From NCBI GenBank assembly GCA_963716175.1, contig OY970296.1, positions 2,496,001-2,560,000 of the forward strand: 64,000 nucleotides of DNA, given 5' to 3'. The notes beneath the pieces were generated by a model. That model had not been told where the DNA came from. It saw only the letters and a program-made list of their open reading frames with translations, and did not search any database. The number at the start of each line of letters is the position of its first letter. The stretch's first letter is position 1. Positions 23,806-48,155 of this stretch are shown here, in pieces. This DNA is from an uncultured Armatimonadetes bacterium (GTDB lineage: Bacteria; Armatimonadota; Hebobacteria; Hebobacterales; Hebobacteraceae). The position numbers and the translations under genes were made by a program.

Positions 23806-23845
23806 CTGGCGCGGCTCCGACTCTCTGCGCCTAGGCGGGTGAACC

Positions 23846-24652: not shown

Positions 24653-24725
24653 CCGCAATGCCGGCGCGCGCGTCCACTGTGCTTCCAGGCTCGAAGCGGA
24701 TAGACGTAGATGCAGGAGAGAGATA

Positions 24726-26411: not shown

Positions 26412-26498
26412 GTCGTTCACGAGCAGCGGGATAGGATACCTCCATCCCCGCGGGCACCGCACTGCTACTCGCCCCGTCCGGTGCATCCGCTGCTGCAC

Positions 26499-26527
26499 TT
26501 GACAGAATTCGTGAGAAATGGTACTAA
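26499..26527 (+). promoter_or_regulatory. candidate sigma70 promoter of the hemA/cytochrome operon
   Basis: TTGACA-17 nt-TACTAA with TG upstream of a weak -10. Confidence 0.5.
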
Positions 26528-26663
26528 GTGCCTGCACCAAGGGCTGGGGGCGCATGTCTGTTGCCTGCCCATGCCTGAATCAGTTGTCGCACATTGCCTC
26601 TCCAGTCCTTGCAGGTGAGCGACTGCTTTCGCGCAAAGCCCCGGACTTGGCGGAGCGGACGTC

Positions 26664-28064
26664 GTGATTCATCTAGTCGGTACCAACCACAAACGGACCT
26701 CAGTGGATGGCCGGGAGCGGTTGGCCTCGGGCCAGGGCCCGGCCGCAGAGTTGGTAGCTAGCGCGCGGGCTGACCTGGGTGCCCGCGAGTGCGTGCTGTT
26801 GGCCACCTGCAACCGATTTGAGGCCTACTTCCTGGCCTCCCCCCATCTCTTTGACCCTACGGCAGCGAGGAGCCTGTTCGGGGCCGGGGTTGCCGGCGGC
26901 GAAGTGTTGGCCGCCGACAGCATCTACTACCATAGCGGGCGCGAGGCCGTCGCCCACTTGCTCACCGTGGCTTCCGGCCTGGACTCTATGGTGCTGGGTG
27001 AGCATGAGATCCTTGGCCAGGTCAAATCTGCCCTGGCGGGAGCGCTGGAGCGGAAGCAAGCCGGCCCCACCCTCACCCGTCTCTTCCAGCACGCGGTGAG
27101 GACCGGCAAACGGGCGCGGCGGGAAACGGCCATCTCCCGCGGCATCTTCTCTCTGGGCCAGTGCGCCGCTCGGGTGGCGGAGGGAGTGTTGGGCGACCTG
27201 GAGGGCAAGCGGGTGCTGATGCTGGGAGCCGGCCGGATGGCCAAGATGACTGGCAAACACCTCGCGGCCTTCGGCGCCCGGCCCATCGCTGTTTTCAGCC
27301 GCACTCCCGAGAGGGCCAGGGATCTGGCCGCGGCGCTGGGCGGCCAGGCCATCGGCGGCACTGAACTCATCGGAGCTCTGCAGACTGCTGACATCCTGAT
27401 CGGATGCGCGGCCGCCCCTCACCATATCATCGGTCGGCCCCAGGTCGAGCAGGCGCTTGAGGGCCGCCAGCACCGGCCCCTGGTGGTGATTGACCTGGGG
27501 GTGCCCAGAAACGTGGATCCCGCGGTCAGACCCCTCGCTGGGGTGAATCTCTTCGACCTGGACGACTTGGAGGCAGTGGTGGCCGAGAACGCAGAGGCGC
27601 GGGAGGCCGAGATCGAGCGGGTCCGCGCCATCGTCGCGGAGGAGACGGCCGAGTTCGAGCGCTGGCACGCCCGCGCCCGGGCCGCCGCGATCGTCGCTCG
27701 GCTTCAGGCAAAGGCAGAGGAGGTGCGCCAGGAGTGCCTGAGAAAGGTGGCGGGCAAGCCGCTTGGGGAGGGTGATGCGTCCACCCTCGACTATCTCACC
27801 GACTTGCTGGTGAGGAAGCTGCTTCACCGCCCCCTGGTCGCGCTGCGGGAAGCGGTTGGCGAAGAGCCTGGCGAGGCTGACCTCGACCTGACCAGCGCGG
27901 TTGCCAGGCTGTTTGACCTGGCCGAATCCAGCCAGCCTGAGGTCTTGGAGCAGCCTGCTGACGAGCGCGCCACACCGACGGCGGACGATCCCGCTACACC
28001 GACGGCGGGCGAGACCTCCAGACGGCCGGCGGGCAAGCTTCGGGGGGCGGGTGGCCGATCCTGA
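26664..28064 (+). CDS. hemA: glutamyl-tRNA reductase
   Basis: LATCNRFE, ASGLDSMVLGEHEILGQVK, LGAGRMA, IDLGVPRNV. Confidence 0.95.
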   Translation: MIHLVGTNHKRTSVDGRERLASGQGPAAELVASARADLGARECVLLATCNRFEAYFLASPHLFDPTAARSLFGAGVAGGEVLAADSIYYHSGREAVAHLLTVASGLDSMVLGEHEILGQVKSALAGALERKQAGPTLTRLFQHAVRTGKRARRETAISRGIFSLGQCAARVAEGVLGDLEGKRVLMLGAGRMAKMTGKHLAAFGARPIAVFSRTPERARDLAAALGGQAIGGTELIGALQTADILIGCAAAPHHIIGRPQVEQALEGRQHRPLVVIDLGVPRNVDPAVRPLAGVNLFDLDDLEAVVAENAEAREAEIERVRAIVAEETAEFERWHARARAAAIVARLQAKAEEVRQECLRKVAGKPLGEGDASTLDYLTDLLVRKLLHRPLVALREAVGEEPGEADLDLTSAVARLFDLAESSQPEVLEQPADERATPTADDPATPTAGETSRRPAGKLRGAGGRS

Positions 28065-28089
28065 TCTGATTGTACGGAGAGAGGGCGAA

Positions 28090-31008
28090 GTGGCTGACGC
28101 TTGGGTGTGGTTCCGAAGAAGGGCAGTCGGCAAGATCGTGGGAGTGAGTCTGGCGGCCGGGGTTTGCGCAGTGGTGCTGTTCTTTCCCGGCGGCCTGGTG
28201 GTGCGGGCCGAGGAGCAAGCAAAGGCCCCCATATCGGGGACGGCCGCGGTGTGCGCGGGCTGCCACCCCGAGGCGGCACAGAGCTGGGCGAACAGCCTGC
28301 ATCGCCGCACCGTTGGCGCGCCCCAGCTCAAGAGTGAGTGGCAGGGCTGCGCTGCCTGCCATCGCGGCGCCAGCGAGCACCTCGCCGATGTCACTGATGT
28401 GAGCAAGCGGCCCACCCTGGCGAACCTGACCCCGGACCAGATCACCGACCTCTGTCAGACCTGCCACCGCGGCGGCAAGCAGGCGCTGTGGATGCTCTCG
28501 CCGCACTCTCGCACCAAGGAGGCCTGCCTCACCTGTCACGATCCTCACGGTGTCAACCCGGATCACATGCTCAAGGCTCCCGAGGTCGAGCTCTGCCGGC
28601 AGTGCCACCCGACCCAGGTGGCGGAGGGAAATCTGCCCTCCCATCATCCCATCCAAGAAGGGAAGATGACCTGCTCCGACTGCCATAACGTGCATGGAGA
28701 AGAGCGCGGGACTCTGCCAGAGGCCACCAATGGCGAGATGTGCTACCGCTGCCATGCCGACAAGCAGGGCCCTTTCATTGCCGAGCATCCGCCGGTGACC
28801 GAGGATTGCACCATCTGCCACCGGCCGCACGGCTCGCCCGTGGACAACTTACTGGTGGAAGACATGCCCATGCTCTGCCTCCAGTGCCATAGCGGCCACG
28901 GCAGCAACCACCGTGATGCCCTGGTTCCAGTGACCACCGATCCCGCCGGCGTGGCCAACGGCCTGCAGGCCATCGGCGCCTTCTACACCAGGTGCACCAG
29001 TTGCCACAGCCGCATCCACGGCACCGATCTGCTCTCACAGAGGGGGGAACCGGTCTTCATGCCAGGCACTCCGCTCGCGCCGCTGGGATCGGAGGAAATC
29101 GGGACCGCGATGAAGGCCGCCGCCCTTGACCAGAGCCTGTGGGGCTTCAGCTATGTGGACGTGGGGCGGTTCGATCAAGACAACAACCCCCAGTTCGTCC
29201 GGGAGTGGGATGGCAAGGACTACAACGTGCCCACCTCCCGCCTCAGCATCGTCAAGTACGGCCAGCAGGACGACTTGCGTTTCGAGGCCACTGACCTGCC
29301 CCGGGGCGACCAGGAGATCAGGCTGCGTTTCGGCAGCCCGCGCTACGACGTGCAGATCAGGCAGTCCGGCCTTACCCACCGCCTGGGACGTTTCGATGAG
29401 AATGTGGACGTCATGGTCCCGGCCTTCCCGTCGCACGGGAGCAGCACCTATCAGGTCAACACCACTGACCTGACAGACGGCGAGAATGACTTCAGAATAA
29501 ACCGGACCTTGGTAGACGCGCGCCTCGCCGCGCGCTGCCCCAGGCTGCCCTACGCCAAGCTCCTCCTGAACTACTGGCAGGCGGCGGAAACGGGGACCAG
29601 GCAGTTTCTGTTCGTAAGTCATTGCACCGCTTGCCACAAGATCCAGACCGCGGAGCCCATTGACCGCATCACCACCATCACCGAAGGAGGCGCCCAACTC
29701 GATTTCCCCAAGGCCTCTTTGCGCTATCTGCGAGGCCACGAGGAGTTCAGCAACCGCGCTCCCGAGAGCTACTTCACTTTCGCCGGTGCAGGACCGGTCT
29801 TCGCCGGCACTGCCCCCCTCTTCGGGGTGGCCAGCACCCGCGCCGACACCAACGACCTTCGCGGCTCGGCCGCCATTGGCGACCGCGTCAGCGTGGCCGC
29901 GCTATGGCGGACCCGAGACCGGAGGGACCTGCTGGGCAATGGGACGATCAACATCAGCAGCGCCGGCGGCGGCGCCACTTACGCCCTGTCACCCCATCTG
30001 CGGCTGCAGACTAGCGCCTTCCGGCGTCGCCTGAACACGTCGCCGCTGCTCGAGGAGGGCATCGCCCGGGACCGGGATACCACCCGGGCCGACCTGCGGT
30101 TCACCGGCCTGCCCCACACCATTGTCAACGTAGGCTATGAGGTAGAGGCGGTGCGTCGGGCCGACGAGCGGGCGCTGGTGCCGGACAGGAGCGATTCCAG
30201 CATCTGGAGCAGCTCGCTCCTCTTCCGGCCGCTCTCTCGACTCTCACTGCAAGTTCGCTACAGGAATACCAAGACCGATCAGAGGGACTTCTTCGATCCC
30301 ACGGCCCCGCCCGCCCAATTCGGCGCGCGGCTGCTTGGCCTGCCCACCGATGGCACTCTGCTCTCCGCCGTGCTCAGCTATAGCCTGCGCAGCAATACCA
30401 TGCTGAGCGGGATGTACAACCGGCAACGCGACATCTTCGAGGAAACCGCGCCGGAGTTGGGGATCTTCAACCAGGTTGAGCAGGAGACCAGGAGCTGGGG
30501 CAGCCAGCTAGTGCACAACCGCGGGCGCAGCCAGCTCAGCGCCGGCTACTACCGCCAGGACGGCAGCAACCTCACCAACGCCATCTACGGCAAGGATACC
30601 TTCACGCTCGCGCCTCCGCTGGTCGAGTCCTCGGTGGACTTCCCGCCGATTGACTCGCACGTCGCCTACGACTACCGAGCTACCATCGAGACTCTGGACG
30701 GCTCGACCTGGCTGACTTCGCGGGTGCGGCTCTTTGGGCGCTATGCTCGCACCCAGACCGACGGCCGGGAAAGGCTAAACGACCTGGGAGATTATCTCGA
30801 TCAGAACCCTGATCTGAACGGCGTGGCCGTCATCCTGAACCCCTTCGATATCGAGATCCTGGATCGCTGGTGTGGGGTAGGCTACGCCGTAGACAGGGAC
30901 ACCGAAGTAGTGCTCAGTCAGCAGCGTCGCTCCTGGGATGACGCCGCCAATCCCTCCCATGATGGCGCTTACACCCTGTGGCGACTTGGTCTGCGCAAGC
31001 AGTTCTAA
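28090..31008 (+). CDS. DmsE/MtrA-type decaheme cytochrome c fused to an MtrB/GSU2204-like outer-membrane beta-barrel
   Basis: Signal peptide; 10 CxxCH with DmsE-like spacing (SHHPI.EGK..C.DCH, KQGPF..EH.PV.EDC..CH.PHGS, IHG); ~620-aa amphipathic beta region containing an 11th CxxCH; terminal LGLRKQF. Confidence 0.8.
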   Translation: MADAWVWFRRRAVGKIVGVSLAAGVCAVVLFFPGGLVVRAEEQAKAPISGTAAVCAGCHPEAAQSWANSLHRRTVGAPQLKSEWQGCAACHRGASEHLADVTDVSKRPTLANLTPDQITDLCQTCHRGGKQALWMLSPHSRTKEACLTCHDPHGVNPDHMLKAPEVELCRQCHPTQVAEGNLPSHHPIQEGKMTCSDCHNVHGEERGTLPEATNGEMCYRCHADKQGPFIAEHPPVTEDCTICHRPHGSPVDNLLVEDMPMLCLQCHSGHGSNHRDALVPVTTDPAGVANGLQAIGAFYTRCTSCHSRIHGTDLLSQRGEPVFMPGTPLAPLGSEEIGTAMKAAALDQSLWGFSYVDVGRFDQDNNPQFVREWDGKDYNVPTSRLSIVKYGQQDDLRFEATDLPRGDQEIRLRFGSPRYDVQIRQSGLTHRLGRFDENVDVMVPAFPSHGSSTYQVNTTDLTDGENDFRINRTLVDARLAARCPRLPYAKLLLNYWQAAETGTRQFLFVSHCTACHKIQTAEPIDRITTITEGGAQLDFPKASLRYLRGHEEFSNRAPESYFTFAGAGPVFAGTAPLFGVASTRADTNDLRGSAAIGDRVSVAALWRTRDRRDLLGNGTINISSAGGGATYALSPHLRLQTSAFRRRLNTSPLLEEGIARDRDTTRADLRFTGLPHTIVNVGYEVEAVRRADERALVPDRSDSSIWSSSLLFRPLSRLSLQVRYRNTKTDQRDFFDPTAPPAQFGARLLGLPTDGTLLSAVLSYSLRSNTMLSGMYNRQRDIFEETAPELGIFNQVEQETRSWGSQLVHNRGRSQLSAGYYRQDGSNLTNAIYGKDTFTLAPPLVESSVDFPPIDSHVAYDYRATIETLDGSTWLTSRVRLFGRYARTQTDGRERLNDLGDYLDQNPDLNGVAVILNPFDIEILDRWCGVGYAVDRDTEVVLSQQRRSWDDAANPSHDGAYTLWRLGLRKQF

Positions 31009-31107
31009 TGAATGTCGCCCAAAGAAGTAACGGGCGACATTCATCAGAAAGCCAGGGAATGCCTGAAGAAAGACGTTCGCGCAGTGTTACTTCATTGCGC
31101 GAACGTC
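31008..31107. repeat. paired-hairpin repeat (GAAGTAA-loop family), copy B
   Basis: ATGAATGTCGCCC-aaagaagtaac-GGGCGACATTCAT, 27 nt, GACGTTCGCGCA-gtgttacttcat-TGCGCGAACGTC. Confidence 0.8.
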
Positions 31108-31136
31108 GGTAGCTGACCGAGGAGTCTGCTTCCCCT

Positions 31137-32558
31137 TTGCCGAGAGTGACGGAGAGCCTGAGAGAGGGGGGCGCTGCCGCCCAGAGCAGCGCCCCCTCGG
31201 TCGAACGCGGGTCGCCCGCCTCCGGCGGGCTGGCCCGCATGGCCTCGGTGAGGCTGACCCTGTGGCTGCTGGCCGTGCTCACTATCGGCATGGCCCTGGC
31301 GACTCTCATCCCCTGGGGCGTGCACCGCTTCGCGTGGCTGGAGCCGCTGGTGGCGAAGACCACCTTGCGCAACATCTATGGGTCCTGGTGGTTCATCGGT
31401 GCCTTTGGTCTGCTCGCAGTCAACCTGTTGGCGTGCAGCATCCAGCGCACCGGACAGTTGCTGCGCCAAGGCCAGTTGCCGGAGGGACCTATCACCCGGG
31501 CGCAAGTGCTCGCCCGCGGGCATCAGGCGCGCTGGCGCGTCCCGCGGGATGGAGAAGAGGTGGCGAGCATCCTGGCCGCCTCCCTCCATCGGCGCGGCTA
31601 CCAGGTTGCGGCTCTGCCGGGCGAGAACGGTCACCGCGGGCTGGCCGCGAGGCGCGGCCGGCTGGCGCCTTGGGCGCCGGTGATCGTGCATGTCGGGATG
31701 GTGATCGTCCTGCTGGGGGCCGCCTGGGGGCGGCTGCCGAGTCACACCTACCGGACGGCCGCCGCCCTGCAGCCAGGCGAGACCTTCCCGGTCACCATCG
31801 GCGAGGACGCCTTCGGGCTGCGGCTGGTGGACGCCGGCGCCAAGCGCGACGCCAGGGGGCAGCCCAGCGACTTCTGGGCGCGCGTGGAGCTGATGGAGGA
31901 GGGCAGGGCGGTTCGCGCCGAGACCGTCCGGCCCAACCATCCCCTCCGCTACCACTCCGTGAGCATGGTGCTGCAGAGCATCATGCCCGCGGGATATAGC
32001 GTGGAGGTGGCGCGGGGGCAGTCCCGGGGCCTGGTGCCCGTGGTCTTGTCCGAGGAGGGGGTGGTGGACATGATGAGCACTATCCGCCGCCTCGACGACC
32101 CCCCCTGGATCGTGTTCATCCACGATTTCCAGGAGGCGTATGAGCAGAGCCCGGAAGGGCCTGAGGCGAAGGTCTTCATTGACCAGTCCGGCGAGCTGAG
32201 CCACAACTGGCAGCTCGTGGGCTGGGTGGGAGAGCCCGGCCTGGACTATGCCGGGGCTCACTTCCGTCTGGTGCGCGCTGGCAGCGGCGTCCAGCTCTCC
32301 CTGGACCGGGATGTTGGTGTGCCCATCGTCTACCTCGGCTTGGTGGTGACCGCGCTGGGCTCGCTCTTGATCCTCGGAGGCCCGCGCCGGAGCCTGGTGG
32401 CTCTCGTCGCCCCGCGTGGTCGGGGCTCCCAGGTGCTGGTGGGTCTGTCCCGCTCCCGTCGGGGCGGGGATGGTGAGAGGTTGCTGGAGCAGCTGCAGTC
32501 CGAACTTGGGGCCGCCTCGGAGGCGGGGCCGCCCCGGGAAGGTGAGGAGACCAAGTGA
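31137..32558 (+). CDS. resB: cytochrome c biogenesis protein ResB/CcsB (system II)
   Basis: ASVRLT, IYGSWWF, NLLACS, IVHVG, VRPNHPL, RDVGVPIVYLG. Confidence 0.9.
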   Translation: MPRVTESLREGGAAAQSSAPSVERGSPASGGLARMASVRLTLWLLAVLTIGMALATLIPWGVHRFAWLEPLVAKTTLRNIYGSWWFIGAFGLLAVNLLACSIQRTGQLLRQGQLPEGPITRAQVLARGHQARWRVPRDGEEVASILAASLHRRGYQVAALPGENGHRGLAARRGRLAPWAPVIVHVGMVIVLLGAAWGRLPSHTYRTAAALQPGETFPVTIGEDAFGLRLVDAGAKRDARGQPSDFWARVELMEEGRAVRAETVRPNHPLRYHSVSMVLQSIMPAGYSVEVARGQSRGLVPVVLSEEGVVDMMSTIRRLDDPPWIVFIHDFQEAYEQSPEGPEAKVFIDQSGELSHNWQLVGWVGEPGLDYAGAHFRLVRAGSGVQLSLDRDVGVPIVYLGLVVTALGSLLILGGPRRSLVALVAPRGRGSQVLVGLSRSRRGGDGERLLEQLQSELGAASEAGPPREGEETK

Positions 32559-33544
32559 GACGCCAAGCAAGCGAACGGCGGGTCGGCCTGCGCCGCAAGA
32601 GCGTGGCCGGGCTGATCCTGGTGGCGGGGGTGGCACTCGCCCTCCTGGCCGGTCCGCCGGCCCGTGGGGGTGTTCCCGCGGGGGCCAGCTATCTGGGCTC
32701 GAAGCTGTGCGTCGCCTGCCACCAGGCCACCCATCCGCAAGCGGTGGCCGGGTGGGCGACCTCGGCTCACGCTCACACCCTCTGGCCGATTGAGGAGTCT
32801 GACGAGAGCCAGAAGGTGGTGGCCGACTTCGCCAAGAGCGCGTTTCCCAAGGAGCAGGCCGCCTACGTGGTGGGCGCGGGCAACCGCTATCAGGCCTTCC
32901 TGGACAAGGATCTCAAAGTGCTCCCAGGCGAGTGGGCGGCCAAGAGCAAGAGCTGGCGGCCCCGCGAGGCGATGGACGCCAGGCAGGACTGCCTGGGCTG
33001 CCACACCACCGGCTATGACCCGGCCGCCGCCCACTGGGTGGAGCTGGACGTAGCCTGCGAGATGTGCCACGGTCCCGGTTCAGTGCACGCCGGCTCCGCC
33101 GACAAGAAGGAGACCATCGTCATGGTGCAGAGCCTCGACCCGGCGCACCAGGCCATGGTCTGCGGGCAATGCCACTCCCAGGGCCGGAGCAAGGACAGCA
33201 AGTATCCCTTCCCGGTCGGCTTCCGCCCCGGGGATGACCTCGACCAGTTCTTCACCTACACTGAGGAAATCCCCAGGGGCGCCATGAACTCGCAGTACAA
33301 CGAGCTTCGCTTCGGCGGGGGCAAGCACCTGGCCTCAGGCACGGTCTGCACCACCTGCCACGACCCCCACGGCTCGGGCGTGCCCAATGAGCTCCGTGCG
33401 CCCGTGAACCAGCTCTGTCAGAAATGCCACACCAAGCTCACGGGGTCCCAGCATAGCAAGGAGGCGCTTGCCGTGGTGACGTGTGCCGTGTGCCACATGC
33501 CCGGTGGCAAGCACACCTTCGTGCCGCCGAAAGGCCTGCCCTGA
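32555..33544 (+). CDS. periplasmic 7-heme cytochrome c
   Basis: Signal peptide; 7 CxxCH (CVACH, CLGCH, CEMCH, CGQCH, CTTCH, CQKCH, CAVCH). Confidence 0.88.
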   Translation: MRRQASERRVGLRRKSVAGLILVAGVALALLAGPPARGGVPAGASYLGSKLCVACHQATHPQAVAGWATSAHAHTLWPIEESDESQKVVADFAKSAFPKEQAAYVVGAGNRYQAFLDKDLKVLPGEWAAKSKSWRPREAMDARQDCLGCHTTGYDPAAAHWVELDVACEMCHGPGSVHAGSADKKETIVMVQSLDPAHQAMVCGQCHSQGRSKDSKYPFPVGFRPGDDLDQFFTYTEEIPRGAMNSQYNELRFGGGKHLASGTVCTTCHDPHGSGVPNELRAPVNQLCQKCHTKLTGSQHSKEALAVVTCAVCHMPGGKHTFVPPKGLP

Positions 33545-33561
33545 GCGAAGCCGAAGGGATC

Positions 33562-33635
33562 GTAGGGCGGGATTCATCCCCCCATGCAGTAGGGCGGGTC
33601 CGCGACCTGCCCAAGAACAGGTCCGCGACCTGCCT
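33562..33635. repeat. GTAG-type REP-like cluster (GTAGGGCGGG)
   Basis: Two GTAGGGCGGG copies plus direct repeat GGTCCGCGACCTGCC; related copies at 43571, 46953 (inverted), 50093. Confidence 0.6.
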
Positions 33636-33649
33636 AGGAGATTCATCTC

Positions 33650-34609
33650 ATGCTGCGAGCTGAAGAGCTGCTCGTGCAAGCCGCGCTCGGCCTCTACCTG
33701 GCCGCCTTCCTCGGCTACGTGCTAGGGCTTGCGATTGGCTGGAGGAAAGCGGGCAAGGCCGCCACGGCTCTCGCCTGGCTGGGTCTGGTCGCCCAGTCTG
33801 TCATGCTCGTGATGCGCGGCCTGAGCGCCCGGCACGTGCCTCTGGTGAGCATGTACGAATACCTCACCGCTTTCTCCTGGATGGTGGTGCTCGCCTACCT
33901 GGTGTTTCAGGTGTGGGCGGGGCGCGGACCTGCCCTACCGGCCGACAGGGGGGTGCAGGTGGCCACGTCGCCTGAGGCGGCCGCCACGGCGGCCGGAGGC
34001 CTGGCCGCGGCCGCGGTGCCGGCGCTGGCGCTGGCGGTGGGGCTGCTCGCCTACGCCTCCTCCCTTCCCTCCCACCTCAAGCAGGCCGAGAGTCTGATGC
34101 CGGTGCTCAGGAGCGATTGGCTGATCTTCCACGTCTCCGTGGCGGTGATCGGCTACGCCGCCGCCGCGCTCGCCAGCGCTTTGGCGTGCCTCTACTTCGT
34201 CAGCTACTACGGGCTGCGGGCGGGCCCGCAGAGAGGTTCCCCTACGAACTCCAGGAGCTCCCGCTGGATAAGAGATCGGTTGCCTGCCGCACCCCTGCTG
34301 GACGAATACGTCTACCGGGTGGTGCGCTTCGCTTTCCCCTTCCTCACCCTGGTGAATGTGACCGGCGCCATCTGGGCCAACAATGCCTGGGGGCGTTACT
34401 GGGGTTGGGACCCCAAGGAGACCTGGTCACTGATCACCTGGCTGATCTATGTCTTCTATCTTCACGCCCGCCTGCGCGCGGGCTGGCGGGCCCCGCAAAC
34501 CAATGCCGTCGTGGTGGTAGGCATCGGCGCCATCCTGTTCACCTTCCTCGGAGTTAACCAGCTTGCGGCCTTCTCGGACAGCCTGCACTCCTATGCCCCT
34601 GGCGGTTAG
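33650..34609 (+). CDS. ccsA: cytochrome c biogenesis protein CcsA/ResC
   Basis: WWD motif WANNAWGRYWGWDPKETW, WLIFHV, LHSY. Confidence 0.95.
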   Translation: MLRAEELLVQAALGLYLAAFLGYVLGLAIGWRKAGKAATALAWLGLVAQSVMLVMRGLSARHVPLVSMYEYLTAFSWMVVLAYLVFQVWAGRGPALPADRGVQVATSPEAAATAAGGLAAAAVPALALAVGLLAYASSLPSHLKQAESLMPVLRSDWLIFHVSVAVIGYAAAALASALACLYFVSYYGLRAGPQRGSPTNSRSSRWIRDRLPAAPLLDEYVYRVVRFAFPFLTLVNVTGAIWANNAWGRYWGWDPKETWSLITWLIYVFYLHARLRAGWRAPQTNAVVVVGIGAILFTFLGVNQLAAFSDSLHSYAPGG

Positions 34610-36521: not shown

Positions 36522-38545
36522 ACCGCCTCAAGCTCTGCCTGCCCTTCGCGCCCCTCCTGAGACGGGTCCGGCTGCCCTTCGTCCGAAGGCGAGTGCCAGT
36601 GTGGGCGCTGGTCGTGATCGCCATTGTGGTGCTGGTGCCAGTCACCGGCGGAGCCATGGTCGCCACCAGCCAGCCCATCTTCTGCAAGTCCTGCCACGAG
36701 ATGAGTTTGCACTACGCCACCTGGAGCCAGTCGGCGCACCGGGACGTGAGCTGCGAGGAATGCCACGTCATGCCCGGCACCGCCAACATGTTCAAGAGCA
36801 AGATCAGGGCTCTCCGGTTGGTGAAGGCGCATGCCGCGGGCGATGTCAAGGCCACCGCCATCCAGGGGCATGTCCCGGATGCCAACTGCAAGCGGTGTCA
36901 CCCCCAGACGCCTGAGCTCGTGACCTATCACGGCCTGAAGATCACGCACCGGGACCATTGGAACATGGGGGTCAAGTGCACCTTCTGTCACGACCGGGTG
37001 GTGCATGGACCCAAGTGGCTCTATACCGGGGTCACCTCCTCCGAGAAGATCAAGGTGGTCTCCACTCCCTACAAGTTCACCCCGCAGATGGAGACCTGCT
37101 ACAAGTGTCACGACGGTAAGCGCGCCTCCAACAAGTGCTCCACCTGCCACGTCACCCTGGGTGAGCGTAAGCCCACCGCCTTCGACCCGGCCTGGGTGGA
37201 GGCCCATCGGGATGAAGTGCGCCGCACCGGGAAACAGGACTGCGAGCGCTGTCATCTGCCCTCCTTTTGCGACGCCTGCCACCGCGCGGCCAATCCCCAT
37301 CCCGGTGACTGGATCGCCCGCCACCCCCAGGAGGCGCGCAGGGATACCGCCGGCTGCTCCTCCTGCCATCTCGCCCCAGGGGAGCAGCGCCCCAAGCAGG
37401 TGAGGGATATGGCCTTCTGCCGGGCTTGCCATGGGCTGCGGCAGGAGCATCGCCAGGCCGACTGGCAGGTGATCCACGGCCGGGAGTCGCTCGCCAACCC
37501 GGCCTCTTGCCAGCGCTGCCACACCCAGAGCTGGTGCTCAGACTGCCATGCCATCAGCCGCCCGCACCCGCAGGAGTGGCTGGCGCGGCACCCCGCGGAG
37601 GCCAACCGCAACCCGGAGAGCTGCCGCGTCTGCCACACTCAGCAGTTCTGCGACGCTTGCCATCACGGCAAGCAGGGCATTCCCGCCTCCCATCAGCAGG
37701 ACTGGCTCACCCGCCACAAGGACGCCGCCCGCCAGGGCCAGGAGACCTGCGCCGTCTGTCATAAGACTGGCTTCTGCCAGAGCTGTCACGCCAAGCAGGC
37801 ACCCACCAGTCACGGCCCCCAATGGCTGAGCCAGCATGGCCCGGCGAGCAGAGCCCAGCCTGCCTCCTGCCTGCTCTGCCACAAAGAACAGCACTGCAAC
37901 CAGTGTCATGGCCTGACTATGCCCCATCCGAAGCTGTGGCTGGCCTCCCATCACAAGGCCGCCGCGCAGAACGAGGCCCTGTGCGAGCGCTGCCATCAGA
38001 AGCAGGCCTGCGACAGCTGTCACCGGGGCGCCTTCCCGGCCTCCCATCAGCCCTCGGACTGGATGAGCCGCCACGGCGCGGAGACGAAGAAGCCCGCCGC
38101 GCAGTGCAGCCTCTGTCACCGCCGGGAGTTCTGCTCCTCCTGTCACGGCGTAGCCATGCCGCATCCCTCCGGATGGAGAGGTCCGCCCCACGGCGCCGCC
38201 GCGCAGAAGGAGCAGACGGTCTGCCTGCGCTGCCATCAGGAGAGCCAGTGCGCCAAGTGCCACGGCCTGGCCATGCCGCATCCGAGCAATTGGATGACCG
38301 AGCATGGGAAGAAGGCGACAGCTTCCCCTGCCCTATGTGGCACTTGCCATGGGCCCGGTCGTCATGACTGCGCCACCTGCCACACTGCCCTGGCCCCATC
38401 CAGCCACCAGCAGGAGAACTGGCGGCAGCAGCACGGCCAAGCAGGAGCGGCCTCCACCGCGCTCTGCTCGCTCTGCCACGGGAAGAATGCTTGCGCTGAT
38501 TGCCACGCGCGGCAGGCCGGGAGGGGCGCCGCAAAGGGCAGTTAG
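36518..38545 (+). CDS. membrane-anchored 28-heme cytochrome c with NapC/NirT-like N-terminus and 11 tandem di-heme modules
   Basis: N-terminal TM, TSQPIFCKSCHEM...W..SAH..V.C.ECH; 28 CxxCH counted. Confidence 0.9.
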   Translation: MNRLKLCLPFAPLLRRVRLPFVRRRVPVWALVVIAIVVLVPVTGGAMVATSQPIFCKSCHEMSLHYATWSQSAHRDVSCEECHVMPGTANMFKSKIRALRLVKAHAAGDVKATAIQGHVPDANCKRCHPQTPELVTYHGLKITHRDHWNMGVKCTFCHDRVVHGPKWLYTGVTSSEKIKVVSTPYKFTPQMETCYKCHDGKRASNKCSTCHVTLGERKPTAFDPAWVEAHRDEVRRTGKQDCERCHLPSFCDACHRAANPHPGDWIARHPQEARRDTAGCSSCHLAPGEQRPKQVRDMAFCRACHGLRQEHRQADWQVIHGRESLANPASCQRCHTQSWCSDCHAISRPHPQEWLARHPAEANRNPESCRVCHTQQFCDACHHGKQGIPASHQQDWLTRHKDAARQGQETCAVCHKTGFCQSCHAKQAPTSHGPQWLSQHGPASRAQPASCLLCHKEQHCNQCHGLTMPHPKLWLASHHKAAAQNEALCERCHQKQACDSCHRGAFPASHQPSDWMSRHGAETKKPAAQCSLCHRREFCSSCHGVAMPHPSGWRGPPHGAAAQKEQTVCLRCHQESQCAKCHGLAMPHPSNWMTEHGKKATASPALCGTCHGPGRHDCATCHTALAPSSHQQENWRQQHGQAGAASTALCSLCHGKNACADCHARQAGRGAAKGS

Positions 38546-38720
38546 CTCCCGCGCCGCGGGTGAGGGCCGAATCGCCCAAGACCGCGACGCCCAGAGCAGG
38601 GAACGCGCCGCCAGGCGGACAACCGCGGGGAACGAAGGGACCTTCGTCCAGATGCTGATCGGAAGCTCCAGGGGGGAGGGGGAGCCAGAGGAGGCGCCAG
38701 GCCAGGGATCGGACGCGAGC

Positions 38721-39194
38721 ATGGCCTCGGTCAGCCGCCGGCGGTTTCTCAGCTATCTCAGCGGCTTGCTCACTGGGTTGATCGCGGTGGCCTTGGGCCT
38801 GCCCCTGGTCCGCTTCTACGTGGGCAACGCGTTCCAGCAGAGAGCGGCGCGGTGGCTCAAGCTGGGGCCGAGGGCGGAGGTGCCAATAGGCCGCCCCACG
38901 CTGTTCCGTCTCAGCTATGTGGAGCAGGAGGGGTGGCGGGACACTACCCGGCGGGAAGAGGTCTACGCGGTTACCCAGGATGGGCGGAACTACCTGGTGC
39001 TCTCGAACATCTGCACCCATCTGGGCTGCCCGGTGCGGTGGGATGACAGAGTTCGAGCTTACCTCTGCCCGTGCCACGGCGGTATGTTCGCCGCGGATGG
39101 CCGGGTGCTGAAGGGGCCACCCCCGAGGCCTCTTCTCCGCTTGCCGCACAAGTTCGAGGGCGGCGTTCTCTATGTCCGGGTCGGGGGAGGCTGA
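38721..39194 (+). CDS. qcrA: Rieske 2Fe-2S subunit of a quinol:cytochrome c oxidoreductase
   Basis: Tat motif SRRRFL; CTHLGC and CPCHG boxes; GPPPRPL. Confidence 0.92.
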   Translation: MASVSRRRFLSYLSGLLTGLIAVALGLPLVRFYVGNAFQQRAARWLKLGPRAEVPIGRPTLFRLSYVEQEGWRDTTRREEVYAVTQDGRNYLVLSNICTHLGCPVRWDDRVRAYLCPCHGGMFAADGRVLKGPPPRPLLRLPHKFEGGVLYVRVGGG

Positions 39195-39196
39195 CC

Positions 39197-41310
39197 GTGT
39201 TTCGCAGGCTGCTCCGGTGGGTTGACGAGCAGACCGAACTGGTCAGCCTACTCCGCCAGTTCATGGAGGAACCGCTCGCGCGGGGCGTGGGTTGGCCCCA
39301 CGTTTTCGGCGGCGCCGCTCTCTTCCTCTTCATCGTGCAGGCCTGCACCGGCGTGCTGCTGGCGGTCTACTATGTGCCTTCGCCCGTGGCCGCCTACCAG
39401 TCCACCTCCTACCTCAGCATGTCCGTTCCCCTGGGCAGCGTGGTGCGCAGCCTCCACCACTGGGGGGCAAGCGCCATGCTGGTGGTGGTGTTCGTGCACA
39501 TGCTGCAAGCCTTCTTCTGGGGCGCTTACAAGCGGCCTCGCCAGATCGTCTGGGTGATCGGTGTGTTCCTGCTCCTGGCCACCCTGGGGCTCAGCTTCAC
39601 CGGATATCTCCTTCCCTGGGATCAGAAGGCCTACTGGGCCACCGTCGTGGGCACCCGCATCGCCGGCAGCCTGCCGGTGGTGGGAACCTACATCACCACC
39701 CTCATCCGGGGCGGCCCCAGTGTGGGGGCGCTCACTATCACCCGGTTCTTCGGCCTGCACGTCTTGATCTTCCCCGCGCTGCTCATCGCACTGATCGCGT
39801 TCCACATCTCACAGGTGCGCATGAAGGGCATCACCGCGCCCTGGCGCCGAGTGGGTGACGAAGACGCCGTGCCCCACCCCGGGCTCTTCTACCCCGACCA
39901 GGTGTTCAAGGATGTAGTGGCGGCCCTGCTGCTCTTGGCCCTGCTTTTCGCCATTGCCGTCCGCTATCCGGCGCCGCTGGAAGCCATCGCCAACCCCACC
40001 AGCACCGGCTATGTGCCTCGCCCCGAGTGGTACTTCCTGCCCAACTTCCAGCTTCTCAAGTACTTCCCCGCGGCCTGGGGCGAGTGGGGTGAGTTCTCCG
40101 GCGCCATCCTCATCCCGGCCCTGGTAGTGCTGCTGCTCATCTTGTTGCCGTACCTGGACTACAATCCCAATCGGCGGCCCCGCCGTCGTCCTTTCGTCAC
40201 CGCTGCCGCGCTGGCCAGCCTCTTCGGCCTCAGCTATCTGGGCGTCGAAGGCGCGAAGAGTGGGCCCAGACCGGTGACTCTCACCGCGACGCAGGCGCGG
40301 GGCGAGAAGGTGTTCCTGGACCTGCGCTGTCAGTCATGCCATGGCATCAACGGCGGCGGCGGCATGGAGGGAGTGGATCTTGCCCAGGGCGGGCCCCGGG
40401 ACCCCCGGAAGGTGGCCGAGAAGCTGCGCTTCCCCACCAGGTCCAACCCCCGTTCGGTCATGCCCCCGGTGCCCAGCAGCCTCAGCCCGGCCGGCTTCGA
40501 TGCCTTGGTGGCCTTCGCCTCGGCCATTGACACTCGCTTCCAGATGCCGACGGTGGCCCCGGTTGGGCCCACCAAGCCCCTCTCTCACTATGAGGAGAAC
40601 TGGTTCGCCAACCACAAGTACGAGGTGCGCAAGGATCCCACCGTCTGCGCCCAGTGCCATCAGCCCAGCTTCTGTCAGAGCTGCCATCGCAATCGCAGAC
40701 CCGATTCGCACCTGCATCGCTGGCTCGAGTTCCATGCTGGGACCGCGCGCGAGCAGCCCGAGTACTGCCAGGTCTGTCACGAGAAGAGCTTCTGCAACGC
40801 CTGCCACAGCAAGCTGATGCACACCTCCGACTGGCTGCACCGGCATGACGAGGCCGGAAGGACACAGTACGAATGTGCCTGCAGTGCCATCAGGAAGGCG
40901 AATGTACCTCCTGCCACCGGGGCGCGACGCCGGTCAGCCACGCCCGCAAAGACTGGGTACACTCTCACCAAGGGGCAAAGGCGGCGGAATGCCGGACCTG
41001 CCATCGCGAGAGCTTCTGTATCACCTGCCATGAGGGAGCCAGGCCCAGGTCGCACGATGCCAGCTGGCTTTCTCGCCATGGCGCGGCCGCCAAAGCGCAG
41101 CCAGCGGGATGCCGCACCTGCCACGCGGCCAGCTTCTGCAGCAGCTGCCATGGAGGTGTGACCATGCCCCATCCGGCTAACTGGGTGATCGCGCACAGGG
41201 TACAGGCGAGCTTTGCCCCCGGCTCAGTCTGCTATCGCTGTCACCAGTACAAGCAGGACTGCGCCAAGTGCCACGGAGAATGGCCGCCTGAGCCGGGCGC
41301 CGGTGGGTGA
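39197..41310 (+). CDS. qcrB: cytochrome b fused to a monoheme cytochrome c and a 12-heme tail (frameshift at ~40872)
   Basis: RSLHHWGAS, FVHM, GYLLPWDQ, FGLHV, PEWY; 5 CxxCH before and 8 after the frameshift; adding one A gives ...TQYEMCLQCH. Confidence 0.85.
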
Positions 41311-41361
41311 ACAGAGGGCGGGCATGCTTCTGCCCGCCTGATTGACCGGGAAGGACAACGC

Positions 41362-42549
41362 ATGATCGGTTTCACGAAACTGCTCTGCGGGAAGGCCACG
41401 GTGTCCCGCGCCCTGCGCCAGGCCGCGGGTGGGCTACAACGAGACCCGGCCTTACTGCAGTTCACTACTGCTCACCGTCCCCTCGTGGTCTGGAACACGA
41501 CCGCCCGCTGCAATCTCCGGTGCGCTCACTGCTACAACGATGCCGGGCCTCAGGCCAGCGGCGAACTCAGCACCGCGGAGGCCGAGGGCCTGATTGATGA
41601 TCTGGCGCAGATGGAAGTCCCGGTGCTTCTGTTCTCCGGCGGCGAGCCCGTGCTCAGGGATGACATCTTGCATCTCGCCGCCTACGCCTTTGATCGCGGA
41701 CTGCGCCCTGTGCTTTCCACCAACGGGACGCTGATTGACGCCGAGGTGGCGCAGGCGCTCGCCCGGGCCCGCCTCCAGTACATCGGGGTTTCGATTGACG
41801 GCCTGCCGGACACCCACGATCGCTTCCGCTGCCAGGAAGGGGCCTGCGCCGCGGCTTGGCAGGGGGTTCGCAGCGCCCGCGACGCGGGCCTGCGGACTGG
41901 CGTCCGCTTCACCGTCACGCGCGAGAACGTGGATGAGCTGCCCGGCGTTCTTGACCAGGCCGTCTCGGAAGGGGTAAACCGCTTCTGCCTCTACCACCTG
42001 GTCTACTGCGGGCGCGGCGCCGCGCTCGCCGACCGCGATCTCTCCCCGGCGCGCCGCCGCGAAATGATCCAGTGGCTGGTGCGCAGAACCGAGGAGCTTC
42101 ACCATCAGGGCCGCGAGATCGAGATCCTGACCACCGACCAGCATGCGGACGGCGTCTTCCTCTATCGCCTGATCGCGCAGCGCGATCCCAACCGGGCGGC
42201 CGAGGTGCTAGAGCTGCTGGGCATGCACGGCGGGTGCTCGGCCGGCACGAAGTTCGCCAACATTGATGCTCAGGGCAATGTGCACCCCTGCCAGTTCTGG
42301 GGGCACGAAGCCGTCGGCAATGTGCGCGAGCGCCCTTTCTCTCGCATCTGGCGAGACCCCGATCAACCTGTGCTCTGCGGACTGCGAGAGCTGCAGCAGC
42401 AGCTGCGAGGCCGCTGTCGGGAATGCGCCTACCGGCATTACTGCGGAGGCTGTCGCATCCGCGCCCAGGCCGTCAGCGGCGACCTCTGGGGCCCCGACCC
42501 GGCCTGCTATCTGAGCGATGAAGAGATAGCCGCCGAGGCGGTGTCGTAG
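41362..42549 (+). CDS. ahbC: radical SAM Fe-coproporphyrin III synthase (alternative heme biosynthesis)
   Basis: MIGFTKLLCG N-terminus, VVWNTT.RCNLRCAHCY, YHLVY.GRG, TDQHADG, SPASM cysteines. Confidence 0.82.
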   Translation: MIGFTKLLCGKATVSRALRQAAGGLQRDPALLQFTTAHRPLVVWNTTARCNLRCAHCYNDAGPQASGELSTAEAEGLIDDLAQMEVPVLLFSGGEPVLRDDILHLAAYAFDRGLRPVLSTNGTLIDAEVAQALARARLQYIGVSIDGLPDTHDRFRCQEGACAAAWQGVRSARDAGLRTGVRFTVTRENVDELPGVLDQAVSEGVNRFCLYHLVYCGRGAALADRDLSPARRREMIQWLVRRTEELHHQGREIEILTTDQHADGVFLYRLIAQRDPNRAAEVLELLGMHGGCSAGTKFANIDAQGNVHPCQFWGHEAVGNVRERPFSRIWRDPDQPVLCGLRELQQQLRGRCRECAYRHYCGGCRIRAQAVSGDLWGPDPACYLSDEEIAAEAVS

Positions 42550-43575
42550 ATGGAGGGAGCGCCGGACCTGGCCCCGGAAGACAAGGCCCTCCTCACGCTT
42601 GCCCAGGCCTCCTTTCCCTTGGTGCAGAGGCCCTTCGCCGCGCTTGCCGGCAAGGTGGGTCTGAGCGAGGAAGCCGTGATCGCCCGGATGACCGCGCTGA
42701 AGGCATCGGGCCTGATTCGCAAGATCGGCCCCGTGTTCGAGCCCGCGCGGCTCGGCCTCACGACTGAGCTGGTGGCGGTGGAAGTGGCGCCGCCAGACCT
42801 GGAGACGGCCGGGGCCGCGGTGGCGGCCTGGCCTCCGGTGACGCATTGCTACGCCCGCGAGCACCGCGTCAACCTCTGGTTCACTGGCGCCGCATCCGGG
42901 GAGGCCTGGTTTGCGTGCGCCGCGGCTCGTGCCGCCGCCCTTCCCGGGGTGTGCGGCGTATGGCGGCTCCCGGCGGTGCGGCGCTTCAAGATCGCGGTCC
43001 ACTTCGACCTGATGGCCGGTCCCGATCCCCCCGCGGGTCGGACTTGCCCTTCACCGTCCGAGACGCCCGCACCGCCTCCGCCCCGGTGGTCTGGCTCCGA
43101 TCTCTCGCTGCTGCGAGCGGTGGAGGCCGATCTGCCTCTATGCCCCGAGCCCTTTGCTGCGCTCGCCTCCTCTCTCGCCATGGCGCCCGAGGACCTCCTG
43201 GGGAACTTGCGCCAGTGGGTGGCCGATGGTCGCATCCGGCGCTATGGCGCATTGGTGAACCACCGGCGCCTCGGGTTCGTCGCCAATGCGATGACCGTCT
43301 GGTCGGTGCCAGATGACCGTCTGGAGACGGTCGGGCGGTGTCTCGCGACCTCGCCCTCCGTCTCCCACTGCTACCAGCGTCCGGCCTTCCCGGATTTCCC
43401 TCACAACCTCTATGCGATGGTGCACGCTCAATCCCGGGCCAGGTGTCTCGACTTGATCCGGGAGCTTTCCCGCAAGTGCGGAGCGGGCGATCCCGTCCCG
43501 CTCTTCTCCACCAGGGAGTTCAAGAAGGCCGCCCCTCGCTACTCCGAGCTGCTTACCTCCGGCCCGTTGCTGTAG
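42550..43575 (+). CDS. fused siroheme decarboxylase AhbA-AhbB (NirDL-like)
   Basis: Two Lrp-like halves: FPLVQRPF...VTHCYAR..NLWFT and LPLCPEPF...NHRRLGF..NAM..VSHCYQR..NLYAMVH..FSTREFKK. Confidence 0.88.
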   Translation: MEGAPDLAPEDKALLTLAQASFPLVQRPFAALAGKVGLSEEAVIARMTALKASGLIRKIGPVFEPARLGLTTELVAVEVAPPDLETAGAAVAAWPPVTHCYAREHRVNLWFTGAASGEAWFACAAARAAALPGVCGVWRLPAVRRFKIAVHFDLMAGPDPPAGRTCPSPSETPAPPPPRWSGSDLSLLRAVEADLPLCPEPFAALASSLAMAPEDLLGNLRQWVADGRIRRYGALVNHRRLGFVANAMTVWSVPDDRLETVGRCLATSPSVSHCYQRPAFPDFPHNLYAMVHAQSRARCLDLIRELSRKCGAGDPVPLFSTREFKKAAPRYSELLTSGPLL

Positions 43576-43756
43576 GGCGGGCATGTGGCTAGGTCGCCAG
43601 TGGGCGACCGCCATCCCGGCCTTCAGGCCTAGGGACCCATGCCCGCCCAGGTGCGAGCCTGGCCCCGCAGACAACCCCTGGTGACCTCGCGCGGCCCCGT
43701 CACTCTTTCTTCTTGCTTTTTTCCCCGAACTTTCGGCGGGCCCGCTCCGGCCGCGC

Positions 43757-43812
43757 TTGACACCGGGCAGCGGGGATGAGATAGTATTTCCGAGTATTCC
43801 GATTCGAAAGAT
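43757..43812 (+). promoter_or_regulatory. candidate promoter and Rrf2-type operator
   Basis: TTGACA followed by GATAGT/TAGTAT and the imperfect AT-rich palindrome TTTCCGAGTATTCCGATTCGAAA directly before the Rrf2 gene. Confidence 0.45.
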
Positions 43813-43818
43813 AGGAAA

Positions 43819-44265
43819 ATGCTAAAGCTTTCCACTCGATCCCGCTACGCCTTGCGCGCGATGATTGAACTCGCCCGCCACGAGGGCCGCGGCCCGGTGC
43901 TGCTGCGCCGGGTGGCAGAGGCGCAGCGGATCTCCCCAAAGTACCTGGAGCAGCTCACTATCCCCCTCCGCAGGGCTGGGTTGCTGCGGGGTGAGAGAGG
44001 GCCGAGCGGCGGCTACGAACTTGCCAAGCCGGCCCCGGAGATCACTGCCCTGGACATCGTGGCTGCCGTCGAAGGGCCCTTGGACTTGCTGAGCTGTGTT
44101 GGCAACGCGACCGCGTGCGATCGCACCGCCACCTGTGCCGCGCGCCAGCTCTGGGTGCGAGTGGGCGAGGCCATGAGCAGAGCGCTGGCACGGGAGACGT
44201 TGGCCGACCTCAGCGAAAGCCAGCGCGCGGCGAGCCAGGCCGACGCCTTCTCCTACCAGATCTGA
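43819..44265 (+). CDS. iscR: Rrf2 family regulator (IscR-like, three Cys)
   Basis: LSTRSRYALRAM, ISPKYLEQL, RGPSGGY, C-x6-C-x5-C. Confidence 0.85.
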   Translation: MLKLSTRSRYALRAMIELARHEGRGPVLLRRVAEAQRISPKYLEQLTIPLRRAGLLRGERGPSGGYELAKPAPEITALDIVAAVEGPLDLLSCVGNATACDRTATCAARQLWVRVGEAMSRALARETLADLSESQRAASQADAFSYQI

Positions 44266-44298
44266 CCCTGGGAGAGAGCGACACACCAGGAGGTTCGC

Positions 44299-48145: not shown

Positions 48146-48155
48146 CGGCAACGAG

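Follow-up and report, generated by a model that had tools for sequence, protein, structure and literature searches.

A multiheme gene cluster encoding a predicted single-chain porin–cytochrome and three candidate quinol modules in an uncultured Armatimonadota bacterium

We analysed a 64,000-nucleotide stretch of DNA (hereafter the window) from an uncultured Armatimonadota bacterium (assembly GCA_963716175.1, contig OY970296.1), which corresponds to positions 2496001–2560000 of a single-contig genome of 4,560,930 bases with 66% G+C. Within it are eleven genes (26664–43575; Table 1) that probably encode a multiheme electron conduit across the cell envelope, including a porin and a decaheme cytochrome in one polypeptide. 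All eleven lie on the forward strand, just as an initial annotation made from the DNA letters had listed them, and several overlap or abut. Heme-binding CxxCH motifs number 11 in the frame at 27901–31008, 7 at 32555–33544, 9 at 34563–36521, 28 at 36518–38545 and 5 at 39071–41161, with 8 more in an overlapping frame at 40873–41310. Counted across the frame break between the last two, the cytochrome b–c gene has 13 (5 + 8) and the cluster 68, in five proteins. The first four of these counts had already been given correctly; the fifth, 13, is reached only by adding the second frame, and the break had gone unmentioned. Genome-wide, seven stop-to-stop frames of at least 80 amino acids (aa) carry at least three CxxCH motifs and six of them lie within this 17 kb cluster, a concentration far beyond chance. 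The seventh is a 184-aa pentaheme protein (genome positions 660195–660749) beside a heme-copper oxidase. Where the families initially assigned to the cluster genes were scored against profile models, the scores are above cut-off for all but the AhbC-like gene.

Table 1. Genes and features of the multiheme cluster and its downstream flank, in window positions (scores in bits, with model cut-offs where given).
Feature	Position	Strand	Description
hemA, glutamyl-tRNA reductase	26664–28064	+	TIGR01035 336.8 (cut-off 209.55)
Single-chain porin–cytochrome	28090–31008	+	Signal peptide, then an MtrA/DmsE-type decaheme domain joined to an MtrB-like barrel by some 50 linker residues; 972 aa
Eleventh heme motif (CTACH)	29623–29637	+	Inside the barrel domain
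resB (ccs1), system II cytochrome c maturation	31137–32558	+	PF05140 154.4 (cut-off 24.6); hydrophobic segments
Seven-heme cytochrome	32555–33544	+	Signal peptide, no lipobox; candidate periplasmic relay
ccsB, system II heme lyase/channel	33650–34609	+	TIGR03144 219.8 (cut-off 187.6); six hydrophobic segments; ccsA in the initial annotation
CbcL-like protein	34563–36521	+	Nine-heme periplasmic domain and cytochrome b561/FdnI-type membrane domain
28-heme cytochrome	36518–38545	+	One membrane anchor, NrfH/NapC-type tetraheme quinol-dehydrogenase domain, 24 further hemes
Rieske 2Fe-2S subunit	38721–39194	+	ATG 38721; twin-arginine signal anchor
Cytochrome b6/subunit IV fused to a class I monoheme domain that is followed by six copies of a diheme repeat	39197–41310	+	GTG 39197; 13 CxxCH
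AhbC-like radical SAM/SPASM enzyme, siroheme-dependent heme pathway	41362–42549	+	Best family TIGR04546
Fused siroheme decarboxylase AhbA/AhbB	42550–43575	+	NF040708 175 (cut-off 140; residues 11–154); NF040707 230.7 (cut-off 125; residues 187–330)
Rrf2/IscR-family regulator	43819–44265		Downstream flank
NifS-type cysteine desulfurase	44299–45468		534.3 (cut-off 530.75)
YedE/TsuA-like membrane protein	45893–46879		After the NifS gene

The most unusual feature of the cluster is the product of its second gene. The initial annotation had listed an outer-membrane porin–cytochrome and overlooked that porin and decaheme form a single polypeptide: decaheme and barrel share one open frame, and the separate polypeptides that characterize MtrAB, PioAB and MtoAB are not found. 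The probable start, GTG 28090, gives the same length as the database entry for this genome (P0002), and there is one hydrophobic segment at the N-terminus. The decaheme domain scores 208.8 bits against TIGR03508 (DmsE family; cut-off 192.2) and matches MtrA (6r2q_A) with a phmmer value of 8.4e-40; its 10 CxxCH motifs occupy residues 118–365 of the 27901 frame.

The last 640 residues were modelled with AlphaFold2 from an alignment of 25 sequences. The model is all-beta, with a predicted local distance difference test score (pLDDT) of 80.3 and a predicted template modelling score (pTM) of 0.71. Its best match among solved structures is MtrB (6r2q_B), both by Foldseek (E 4.8e-19 and template modelling score, TM, 0.69; runner-up E 1.1e-7, TM 0.38) and by VIA (Z 24.4, root-mean-square deviation 3.8 Å over 554 residues; runner-up Z 16.2). 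The C-terminal Phe of the barrel is invariant in the alignment. The model opens with three short strands of 9 residues, and the first strands of MtrB are likewise short in the available text of PMC7198977. The domain is thus modelled as a 26-strand MtrB-type outer-membrane barrel, in line with the outer-membrane porin first proposed for this region.

In complex predictions, the decaheme domain and the barrel score 0.91 (best control 0.00), with at least 91% contact agreement between runs, partner pLDDT of at least 83, and 482–505 contacts on alternate residues of many strands. The mark applied to this score is attained by 58 of 80 solved complexes and by 2 of 110 mismatched pairs. The prediction is consistent with a cytochrome running inside the barrel lumen, the arrangement described for MtrAB in the available text of PMC7198977. 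Since a like complex has been solved (6r2q), the pass may show likeness or model memory only.

The eleventh heme motif lies in the barrel, and its C, C and H are invariant in all 25 aligned sequences. In the predicted model it forms a 5-residue turn between strands of 22 and 24 residues, and it aligns with the single CxxCH of four two-gene barrels from other phyla at about 22% identity. Its side of the membrane was assigned by counting strand parity back from the barrel C-terminus, together with predicted contacts and without the use of coordinates. The C-terminus of such barrels ends in the periplasm, and the count places connections of 2 residues in the periplasm and loops of 20 residues outside. 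Among the predicted contacts, (i) decaheme residues 325–340, at the C-terminus of that domain, touch barrel loops counted as outside, the position corresponding to that of heme 10 in MtrA, and (ii) decaheme residues 235–241 touch barrel residue 221 and the loop at 281–288. Barrel residues 224–250, which include an invariant APLFGV, would on this count probably form an extracellular re-entrant loop, giving 26 strands and placing the CxxCH at the tip of a long extracellular hairpin. An invariant His at barrel residue 98 was considered as the distal ligand of heme 11 and dropped because strand parity puts it in the periplasm. One fused orthologue (L008:9995–12937, 39% identity) has 10 CxxCH motifs where the others have 11.

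A database search with the fused protein returned 26 other protein clusters at 35–59% identity, of which 24 are fused (883–985 aa); the remaining two lie on short contigs (1.8 and 3.2 kb) and are truncated. Those few relatives that have names carry Armatimonadota labels. The fused frame is also open in seven related genomes (981–1052 aa). Full-length single-frame matches in genome contigs bear only Armatimonadetes, Armatimonadota or Candidatus Hebobacteria labels, the last being an Armatimonadota class in the taxonomy, and these labels of the closest loci fit the placement in Armatimonadota that had been thought probable from the DNA. Another fused frame, truncated where its contig stops, has a Bacillota label (L006). 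When 401 genomes of the phylum were sampled, 13 matched and nine had the strong fused form, all in one class. Within this class the fused form occurs in 9 of 31 genomes and three of five families (five of 14 genomes in f1, leaving out the window's own, one of one in f2, two of two in f5 and none of 12 in f4). Among the genomes surveyed, the fused form is limited to this one Armatimonadota class.

We also surveyed 76 loci for two-gene arrangements (L007–L082), of which 20 were unscorable by the criteria used. At 48 of the 76, a gene with 10 CxxCH motifs is followed by a 560–820-aa gene with exactly one; these loci belong to Desulfuromonadales, other Thermodesulfobacteriota, Zixibacteria, Aquificota and others. 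The barrel is without a motif at eight loci, i.e. six of the Planctomycetota with 14-heme partners, plus L007 (Bacillota label) and L011 (Armatimonadota), where the whole query is matched by two separate genes. The Planctomycetota variant (L041, L049, L058, L064, L065 and L068) consists of a 14-CxxCH cytochrome of 500–560 aa and then a barrel of 730–870 aa that has no CxxCH. In an unrooted FastTree phylogeny of 81 barrels (truncated P0020 and P0021 left out), the 25 fused barrels form one group with a support of 99. Because the tree is unrooted, the direction of change between fused and split forms and the donor lineage cannot be read from it.

Inside the cell, three candidate quinone interfaces had been proposed (CbcL-like, NapC-like and Rieske/cytochrome b), and we found matches in family and architecture for each of them. 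The CbcL-like gene probably starts at 34593 or 34722. Its product scores 44.7 against PF01292 (cut-off 30.1) at residues 433–608 and has five or six hydrophobic segments in its C-terminal half. A nine-heme c domain joined to a diheme b-type (FdnI/HydC-like) membrane domain is the architecture of CbcL (10.1101/2022.08.31.506072), and it is by architecture only that the protein is assigned to this type; no CbcL-specific model matched in the NCBIfam scan of the cluster proteins. The closest complete relative (L003:16037–19177) has two separate frames of 439 and 416 aa, both with 9 CxxCH, in place of the one CbcL-like gene, which could represent a duplication or a split. The seven-heme protein contains Paired_CXXCH_1, Cytochrome_C7 and c554-like domains and one N-terminal hydrophobic segment, and its orthologues in relatives have 6 CxxCH motifs.

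The 28-heme protein matches the NapC/NirT N-terminus (PF03264, 37.8; cut-off 24.1) and NrfH (2j7a_C, phmmer 9.4e-8), with a transmembrane segment at residues 30–48 and four CxxCH motifs at 56–154. It reaches only 52 against the NrfH equivalog TIGR03153 (cut-off 134.2) and is therefore not NrfH proper. Almost all of its 24 distal hemes are arranged in diheme repeats of about 38–43 residues each; dissection gives 11 paired motifs and one wider-spaced pair, i.e. 12 diheme repeats, and the protein has 61 His in total. Each repeat has two extra His, which fits bis-His hemes. A PDB sequence search with the 28-heme protein gave no match beyond NrfH, and a protein atlas search with its diheme-repeat part gave generic multiheme clusters only (top score 0.93, commonest phylum Armatimonadota). 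In database relatives the repeat is attached to NapC-type, cytochrome b-type and b561-type anchors, and within the cluster it recurs, in six copies, in the tail of the cytochrome b fusion.

The third module combines the Rieske protein (PF00355, 39.9, cut-off 20.3; SRRRF motif; one hydrophobic segment) with a cytochrome b that matches PF00033 (151.5, cut-off 27.2), PF13631 (152.1) and PF00032 (40.7, above cut-off). The complex has no separate cytochrome c1 or f; its c-type part, a class I domain and 12 hemes, is fused to cytochrome b. Judging from heme number alone, the long heme chains of these proteins would bridge the periplasm.

The reading frame of the cytochrome b/13-heme gene has a 1-base break at 40872/40873. 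When an intact orthologue (L008; 727 aa, 13 CxxCH) is aligned to the window, the match passes from one frame to the other near 40872. We compared contigs from four public runs, all at least 95% alike, over 40400–41300: all three contigs that cover the break, from three other studies, have an extra G after 40872 that restores the frame, and the fourth ends at 40872. These contigs differ from the window at 8–10 other positions and so represent close strains rather than the same DNA. A paralogue of the AhbC-like gene, an AhbD-like radical SAM gene on the reverse strand at genome positions 2492524–2493638 (about 2.4 kb ahead of the window), is likewise divided over two frames; if this gene encodes heme b synthase and its break is real, the loss would be lethal for heme supply, which points to assembly indels. 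At genome positions 2446491–2447590, two matches to PF00384 (molybdopterin oxidoreductase) lie in different frames about 430 bases apart and may be one frameshifted gene. Such other split genes, together with a completeness of 90.85% in a single contig, form a pattern that fits assembly indel errors, and the break at 40872/40873 is probably an assembly indel.

We then compared the organization of the cluster among relatives. The order hemA, fused gene, resB, seven-heme gene, ccsB, CbcL-like gene, 28-heme gene, Rieske gene, cytochrome b/13-heme gene and ahbC is conserved in one genome of the same family (G265) and one of the same order (G124, where the stretch examined ended before hemA). Two other genomes of the class (G178 and G032) share this order as far as the 28-heme gene, and the Rieske/cytochrome b pair is absent nearby. 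In G169, only hemA and the fused gene are together and the 28-heme gene is on another contig. The 28-heme query matched in all eight of the other fusion-positive genomes of the class (E ≤ 1e-20), weakly or partially in G212 and G083, as against 2 of the 22 fusion-negative genomes (G251 strongly, G071 weakly).

The remaining genes serve heme supply and cytochrome c maturation. The true start of resB may be ATG 31239. The AhbC-like protein scores 445.4 against TIGR04546, under the equivalog cut-off of 650, and 419.6 against NirJ1. For this and the following absences the genome is the assembly scored 90.85% complete: tblastn (E ≤ 1e-5) found no second copies in it of hemA, resB, ccsB, Rieske, cytochrome b or the heme proteins, and neither CcmE (PF03100) nor ferrochelatase (PF00762) was found. 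System II and the Ahb route appear to be the cell's only systems for heme c attachment and heme synthesis. As sole copies found, the maturation and heme genes are housekeeping genes clustered with their largest client. The cluster is indeed self-contained, as it was first described; its maturation and heme genes are not dedicated to it.

The genome encodes the outer-membrane markers BamA/Omp85 (PF01103, 151.8 bits) and LpxC (PF03331, 280.6 bits), so that the outer membrane on which the first interpretation depended is accounted for. That interpretation had also allowed for service to a periplasmic reductase; we find no catalytic reductase among the cluster and flank genes, and the whole genome has just three PF00384 matches at two loci, one ActB-like and the other two resembling a single gene in two frames. 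The sole other multiheme locus (genome positions 655000–666500) encodes the pentaheme protein mentioned above, which is ActA-like, a 1056-aa molybdopterin-family frame, NrfD-like proteins and a single COX1, and looks like an alternative complex III with a heme-copper oxidase. An MqnA/D-family gene of the futalosine pathway suggests menaquinone. The RuBisCO large subunit was not found in the genome, and no extracellular cytochrome of the MtrC/OmcA type occurs among its frames with at least three CxxCH motifs. Near-identical DNA is present in runs labelled as sediment and wetland metagenomes.

Directly upstream of hemA (22465–26411) are a 467-aa open reading frame on the reverse strand and a 561-aa one on the forward strand, neither with a Pfam or NCBIfam match. 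Promoter- and terminator-like sites over 26000–44400 are at chance level (3 promoter-like sites versus 1.3 expected; 6 terminator-like versus 6.1). A sigma-70-like site matching at 10 of 12 positions, with a TG extension (43757–43785), stands ahead of the Rrf2 gene and hints that the next transcription unit starts there. The flanks encode glycoside hydrolases of families 5 and 9 (GH5 and GH9), a DUF6785 protein, an AraC regulator and the Rrf2–NifS pair. The GH5 cellulase-family protein (with a Tat-type signal), the 646-aa DUF6785 protein and the GH9 enzyme lie at 46904–50096 and 55559–58036, and the glycoside hydrolases suggest a polysaccharide-degrading lifestyle.

Diderm bacteria are known to pass electrons through the outer membrane by means of porin–cytochrome conduits. 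We consider it probable that the cluster encodes a quinol-to-surface electron conduit of this kind, with three parallel quinol modules, in a diderm Armatimonadota cell. This agrees with the complete quinone-to-surface pathway of the initial annotation, and nothing that it had named as contrary evidence was found. The analysis establishes which genes and domain families are present, which folds they are predicted to adopt, and how they are conserved and distributed; the threading of the cytochrome, the side of heme 11, the spanning of the periplasm and the direction of flow are inferred. At the inner membrane, three alternative modules (the CbcL-like protein, the NrfH-anchored 28-heme protein and the Rieske/cytochrome b complex with its 13-heme tail) would exchange electrons with the menaquinol pool. 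The diheme-repeat chains, perhaps aided by the seven-heme cytochrome, would carry electrons across the periplasm. At the outer membrane, the fused protein would do the job of both MtrA and MtrB, with its decaheme domain threaded through its own 26-strand barrel, and heme 11, on a barrel loop predicted to face outwards, would be the surface contact that replaces a separate MtrC-type cytochrome. ResB and CcsB would attach the hemes, and HemA and the Ahb enzymes would make them, supplying this pathway as well as all other processes in the cell. If the potential-dependent ImcH, CbcL and CbcBA routes of Geobacter are a guide, each of the three modules may work in a redox window of its own, and the Rieske/cytochrome b route would then be the energy-conserving one for higher-potential acceptors.

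A more tentative extension, which we hold somewhat less likely to be right than wrong, is that (i) one protein suffices for the outer-membrane step, a single-chain MtrA–MtrB that BAM folds around its own covalently tethered decaheme; (ii) heme 11, on its extracellular hairpin tip, acts as a built-in surface electrode in place of MtrC; (iii) the 28-heme chain could span the periplasm and dock on the fused protein; and (iv) the barrel heme is also the unrecognised terminal site of the widespread two-gene conduits of the GSU2203/GSU2204 type. If (iii) were true, just two polypeptides would connect menaquinol with the outside of the cell.

Several points weigh against the conduit as proposed. The models for GSU2203/GSU2204, discussed below, score under their cut-offs (NF041028, 251.6 versus 325; NF041027, 88.1 versus 350). 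The structural evidence consists of predictions made without hemes, the complex score may echo the solved MtrAB, and the membrane side of heme 11 depends on a reading of strand parity rather than on coordinates. No RNA run is among the public runs listed for 40400–41300. The frameshift in the cytochrome b–c gene, if real, truncates one of the three quinol routes. It is very unlikely, in our view, that the cluster is decaying in this strain, with a real frameshift and a pathway partly or wholly inactive: the break is present in the assembled genome, but every covering contig from the three other studies reads through it, the AhbD-like gene (and maybe a molybdopterin gene) is likewise split, consistent with assembly indels, and all other genes of the cluster are open. 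Also on the unfavourable side, the lack of an MtrC/OmcA-type cytochrome in the genome matches what is seen with the Fe(II)-oxidising PioAB and MtoAB and makes inward flow a serious alternative, and the heme-copper oxidase could accept inward electrons. The direction of flow cannot be read from sequence, as had been said at the outset. We lean slightly to outward flow, in which the cell, living as an anaerobic organotroph, would reduce Fe(III), Mn(IV), humics or a partner, because of the organotrophic context, menaquinone, the RuBisCO that was not found, and the CbcL-type and NrfH-type modules; we also count the sediment and wetland occurrence and the flanking glycoside hydrolases as pointers in this direction. 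Modules of the CbcL type and the NrfH/CymA type are best known as quinol oxidases.

The same hardware could instead work inward, in the manner of PioAB and MtoAB. Electrons would then enter from Fe(II), from reduced minerals or humics, or from a partner cell, and would travel along the heme chains either to the heme-copper oxidase or, uphill, by way of Rieske/cytochrome b to menaquinone. This is possible, though we doubt it. Besides the missing MtrC-type surface cytochrome, a single COX1 adjoins the pentaheme protein that resembles alternative complex III, and the cluster itself has a Rieske/cytochrome b complex; but uphill flow is costly with a low-potential menaquinone pool, the CbcL-type and NrfH-type modules are better known for the opposite reaction, the surrounding genome looks organotrophic, and no large subunit of RuBisCO, the only carbon-fixation marker searched, was found. 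A published Armatimonadota MtoA homologue is nearer to PioA/MtoA than to MtrA in the available text of PMC9671151, which would also favour inward flow; it comes from another metagenome-assembled genome (MAG). An unlikely explanation is that the cluster is mainly an ordinary respiratory chain with its cofactor supply, and that the porin–cytochrome serves a soluble or colloidal substrate (dimethyl sulfoxide, selenite/tellurite or an organic oxidant) rather than a mineral or electrode. Such a role would suit hemA, resB, ccsB, Rieske and cytochrome b as sole copies found in a genome where CcmE and ferrochelatase were not detected, and there are weak NCBIfam matches to models of the Geobacter Ext 'selenite/tellurite reduction operon' (ExtP, 225.5 versus 290; ExtN and ExtO, about 15 bits). 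Yet no catalytic reductase lies in or beside the cluster, the three PF00384 matches of the genome comprise one ActB-like protein and two that are probably one gene, a separate locus with pentaheme protein and oxidase is at hand for aerobic respiration, and 68 hemes, including the 28- and 13-heme chains, far exceed the need of a soluble substrate.

The probable quinol-to-surface conduit has several parts that are not described in the literature searched, i.e. the single-chain decaheme–barrel, the conserved barrel heme as a candidate surface site, and the diheme-repeat chains of the 28-heme NrfH-anchored and 13-heme cytochrome b-fused proteins. For the decaheme–barrel fusion, that literature includes the available text of PMC10654088, PMC11492766 and PMC10290634, and supplementary files may list such genes. 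The initial annotation knew of no electroactivity in this lineage; a single publication has proposed a potential for iron redox reactions in Armatimonadota, from a hot-spring MAG with an MtoA homologue and cytochromes with at least 10 hemes (PMC9671151, available text). With this cluster, redox activity on iron, manganese or humics in an uncultured class of Armatimonadota would have an identifiable set of genes behind it. It also bears on two issues, namely how a cytochrome enters its barrel and what meets the substrate when there is no MtrC-type partner. A single-chain conduit would be a compact object for structural work and engineering, with one gene replacing two or three; the barrel heme is a testable candidate for the surface contact, also in two-gene relatives (Desulfuromonadales, Zixibacteria, Aquificota and others); and the diheme repeat is a modular 'wire' found on three different quinol-binding anchors.

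Among known outer-membrane conduits, MtrAB (Shewanella, 6R2Q), PioAB, MtoAB and DmsEF share with the fused protein an MtrA/DmsE-family decaheme, a 26-strand modelled barrel and a predicted sheath, and PioAB and MtoAB likewise have no MtrC partner. MtrAB is made of two proteins, whereas the decaheme and barrel are linked here in one chain; the identity between the MtrB barrel and that of the window is just 10–11%, and the invariant barrel CxxCH is a feature of the latter. The extracellular decaheme lipoprotein (MtrC/OmcA) of the reducing MtrCAB type is not found here. For both halves of the fused protein, the best-scoring NCBIfam pair is that of Geobacter sulfurreducens GSU2203 (OmcK) and GSU2204 (NF041028 and NF041027). 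This type has the single barrel CxxCH at the same place beside a decaheme; however, its two genes are separate, and the barrels of two-gene forms are about 22% identical to the fused one. In the available text of PMC13188914, NCBI describes members of the GSU2204 family as MtrB/PioB-family barrels that contain CXXCH, and that of PMC4070692 reports that both GSU2203 and GSU2204 rose with hematite and magnetite in Geobacter. Cyc2 of iron oxidisers also combines heme c and an outer-membrane barrel in one polypeptide, and the concept of a fused cytochrome–porin is taken from the title of 10.1101/228056 and from PMC10654088. By contrast with the 11 hemes and 26-strand MtrB-type barrel of the window's protein, Cyc2 has one heme and about 16–17 strands (PMC10654088, available text).

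The inner-membrane modules can be compared in the same way. The CbcL-like protein shares with Geobacter CbcL the architecture of a nine-heme c domain and a b561-type membrane domain, and the 28-heme protein shares with Shewanella CymA an NrfH/NapC-type tetraheme anchor, extended here by 24 hemes in one chain. Several parallel quinol routes are also present in Geobacter (ImcH, CbcL and CbcBA). The third route of this cluster, a Rieske/cytochrome b complex whose cytochrome b is extended by a 13-heme tail, is unlike the quinol oxidases of Geobacter and Shewanella.

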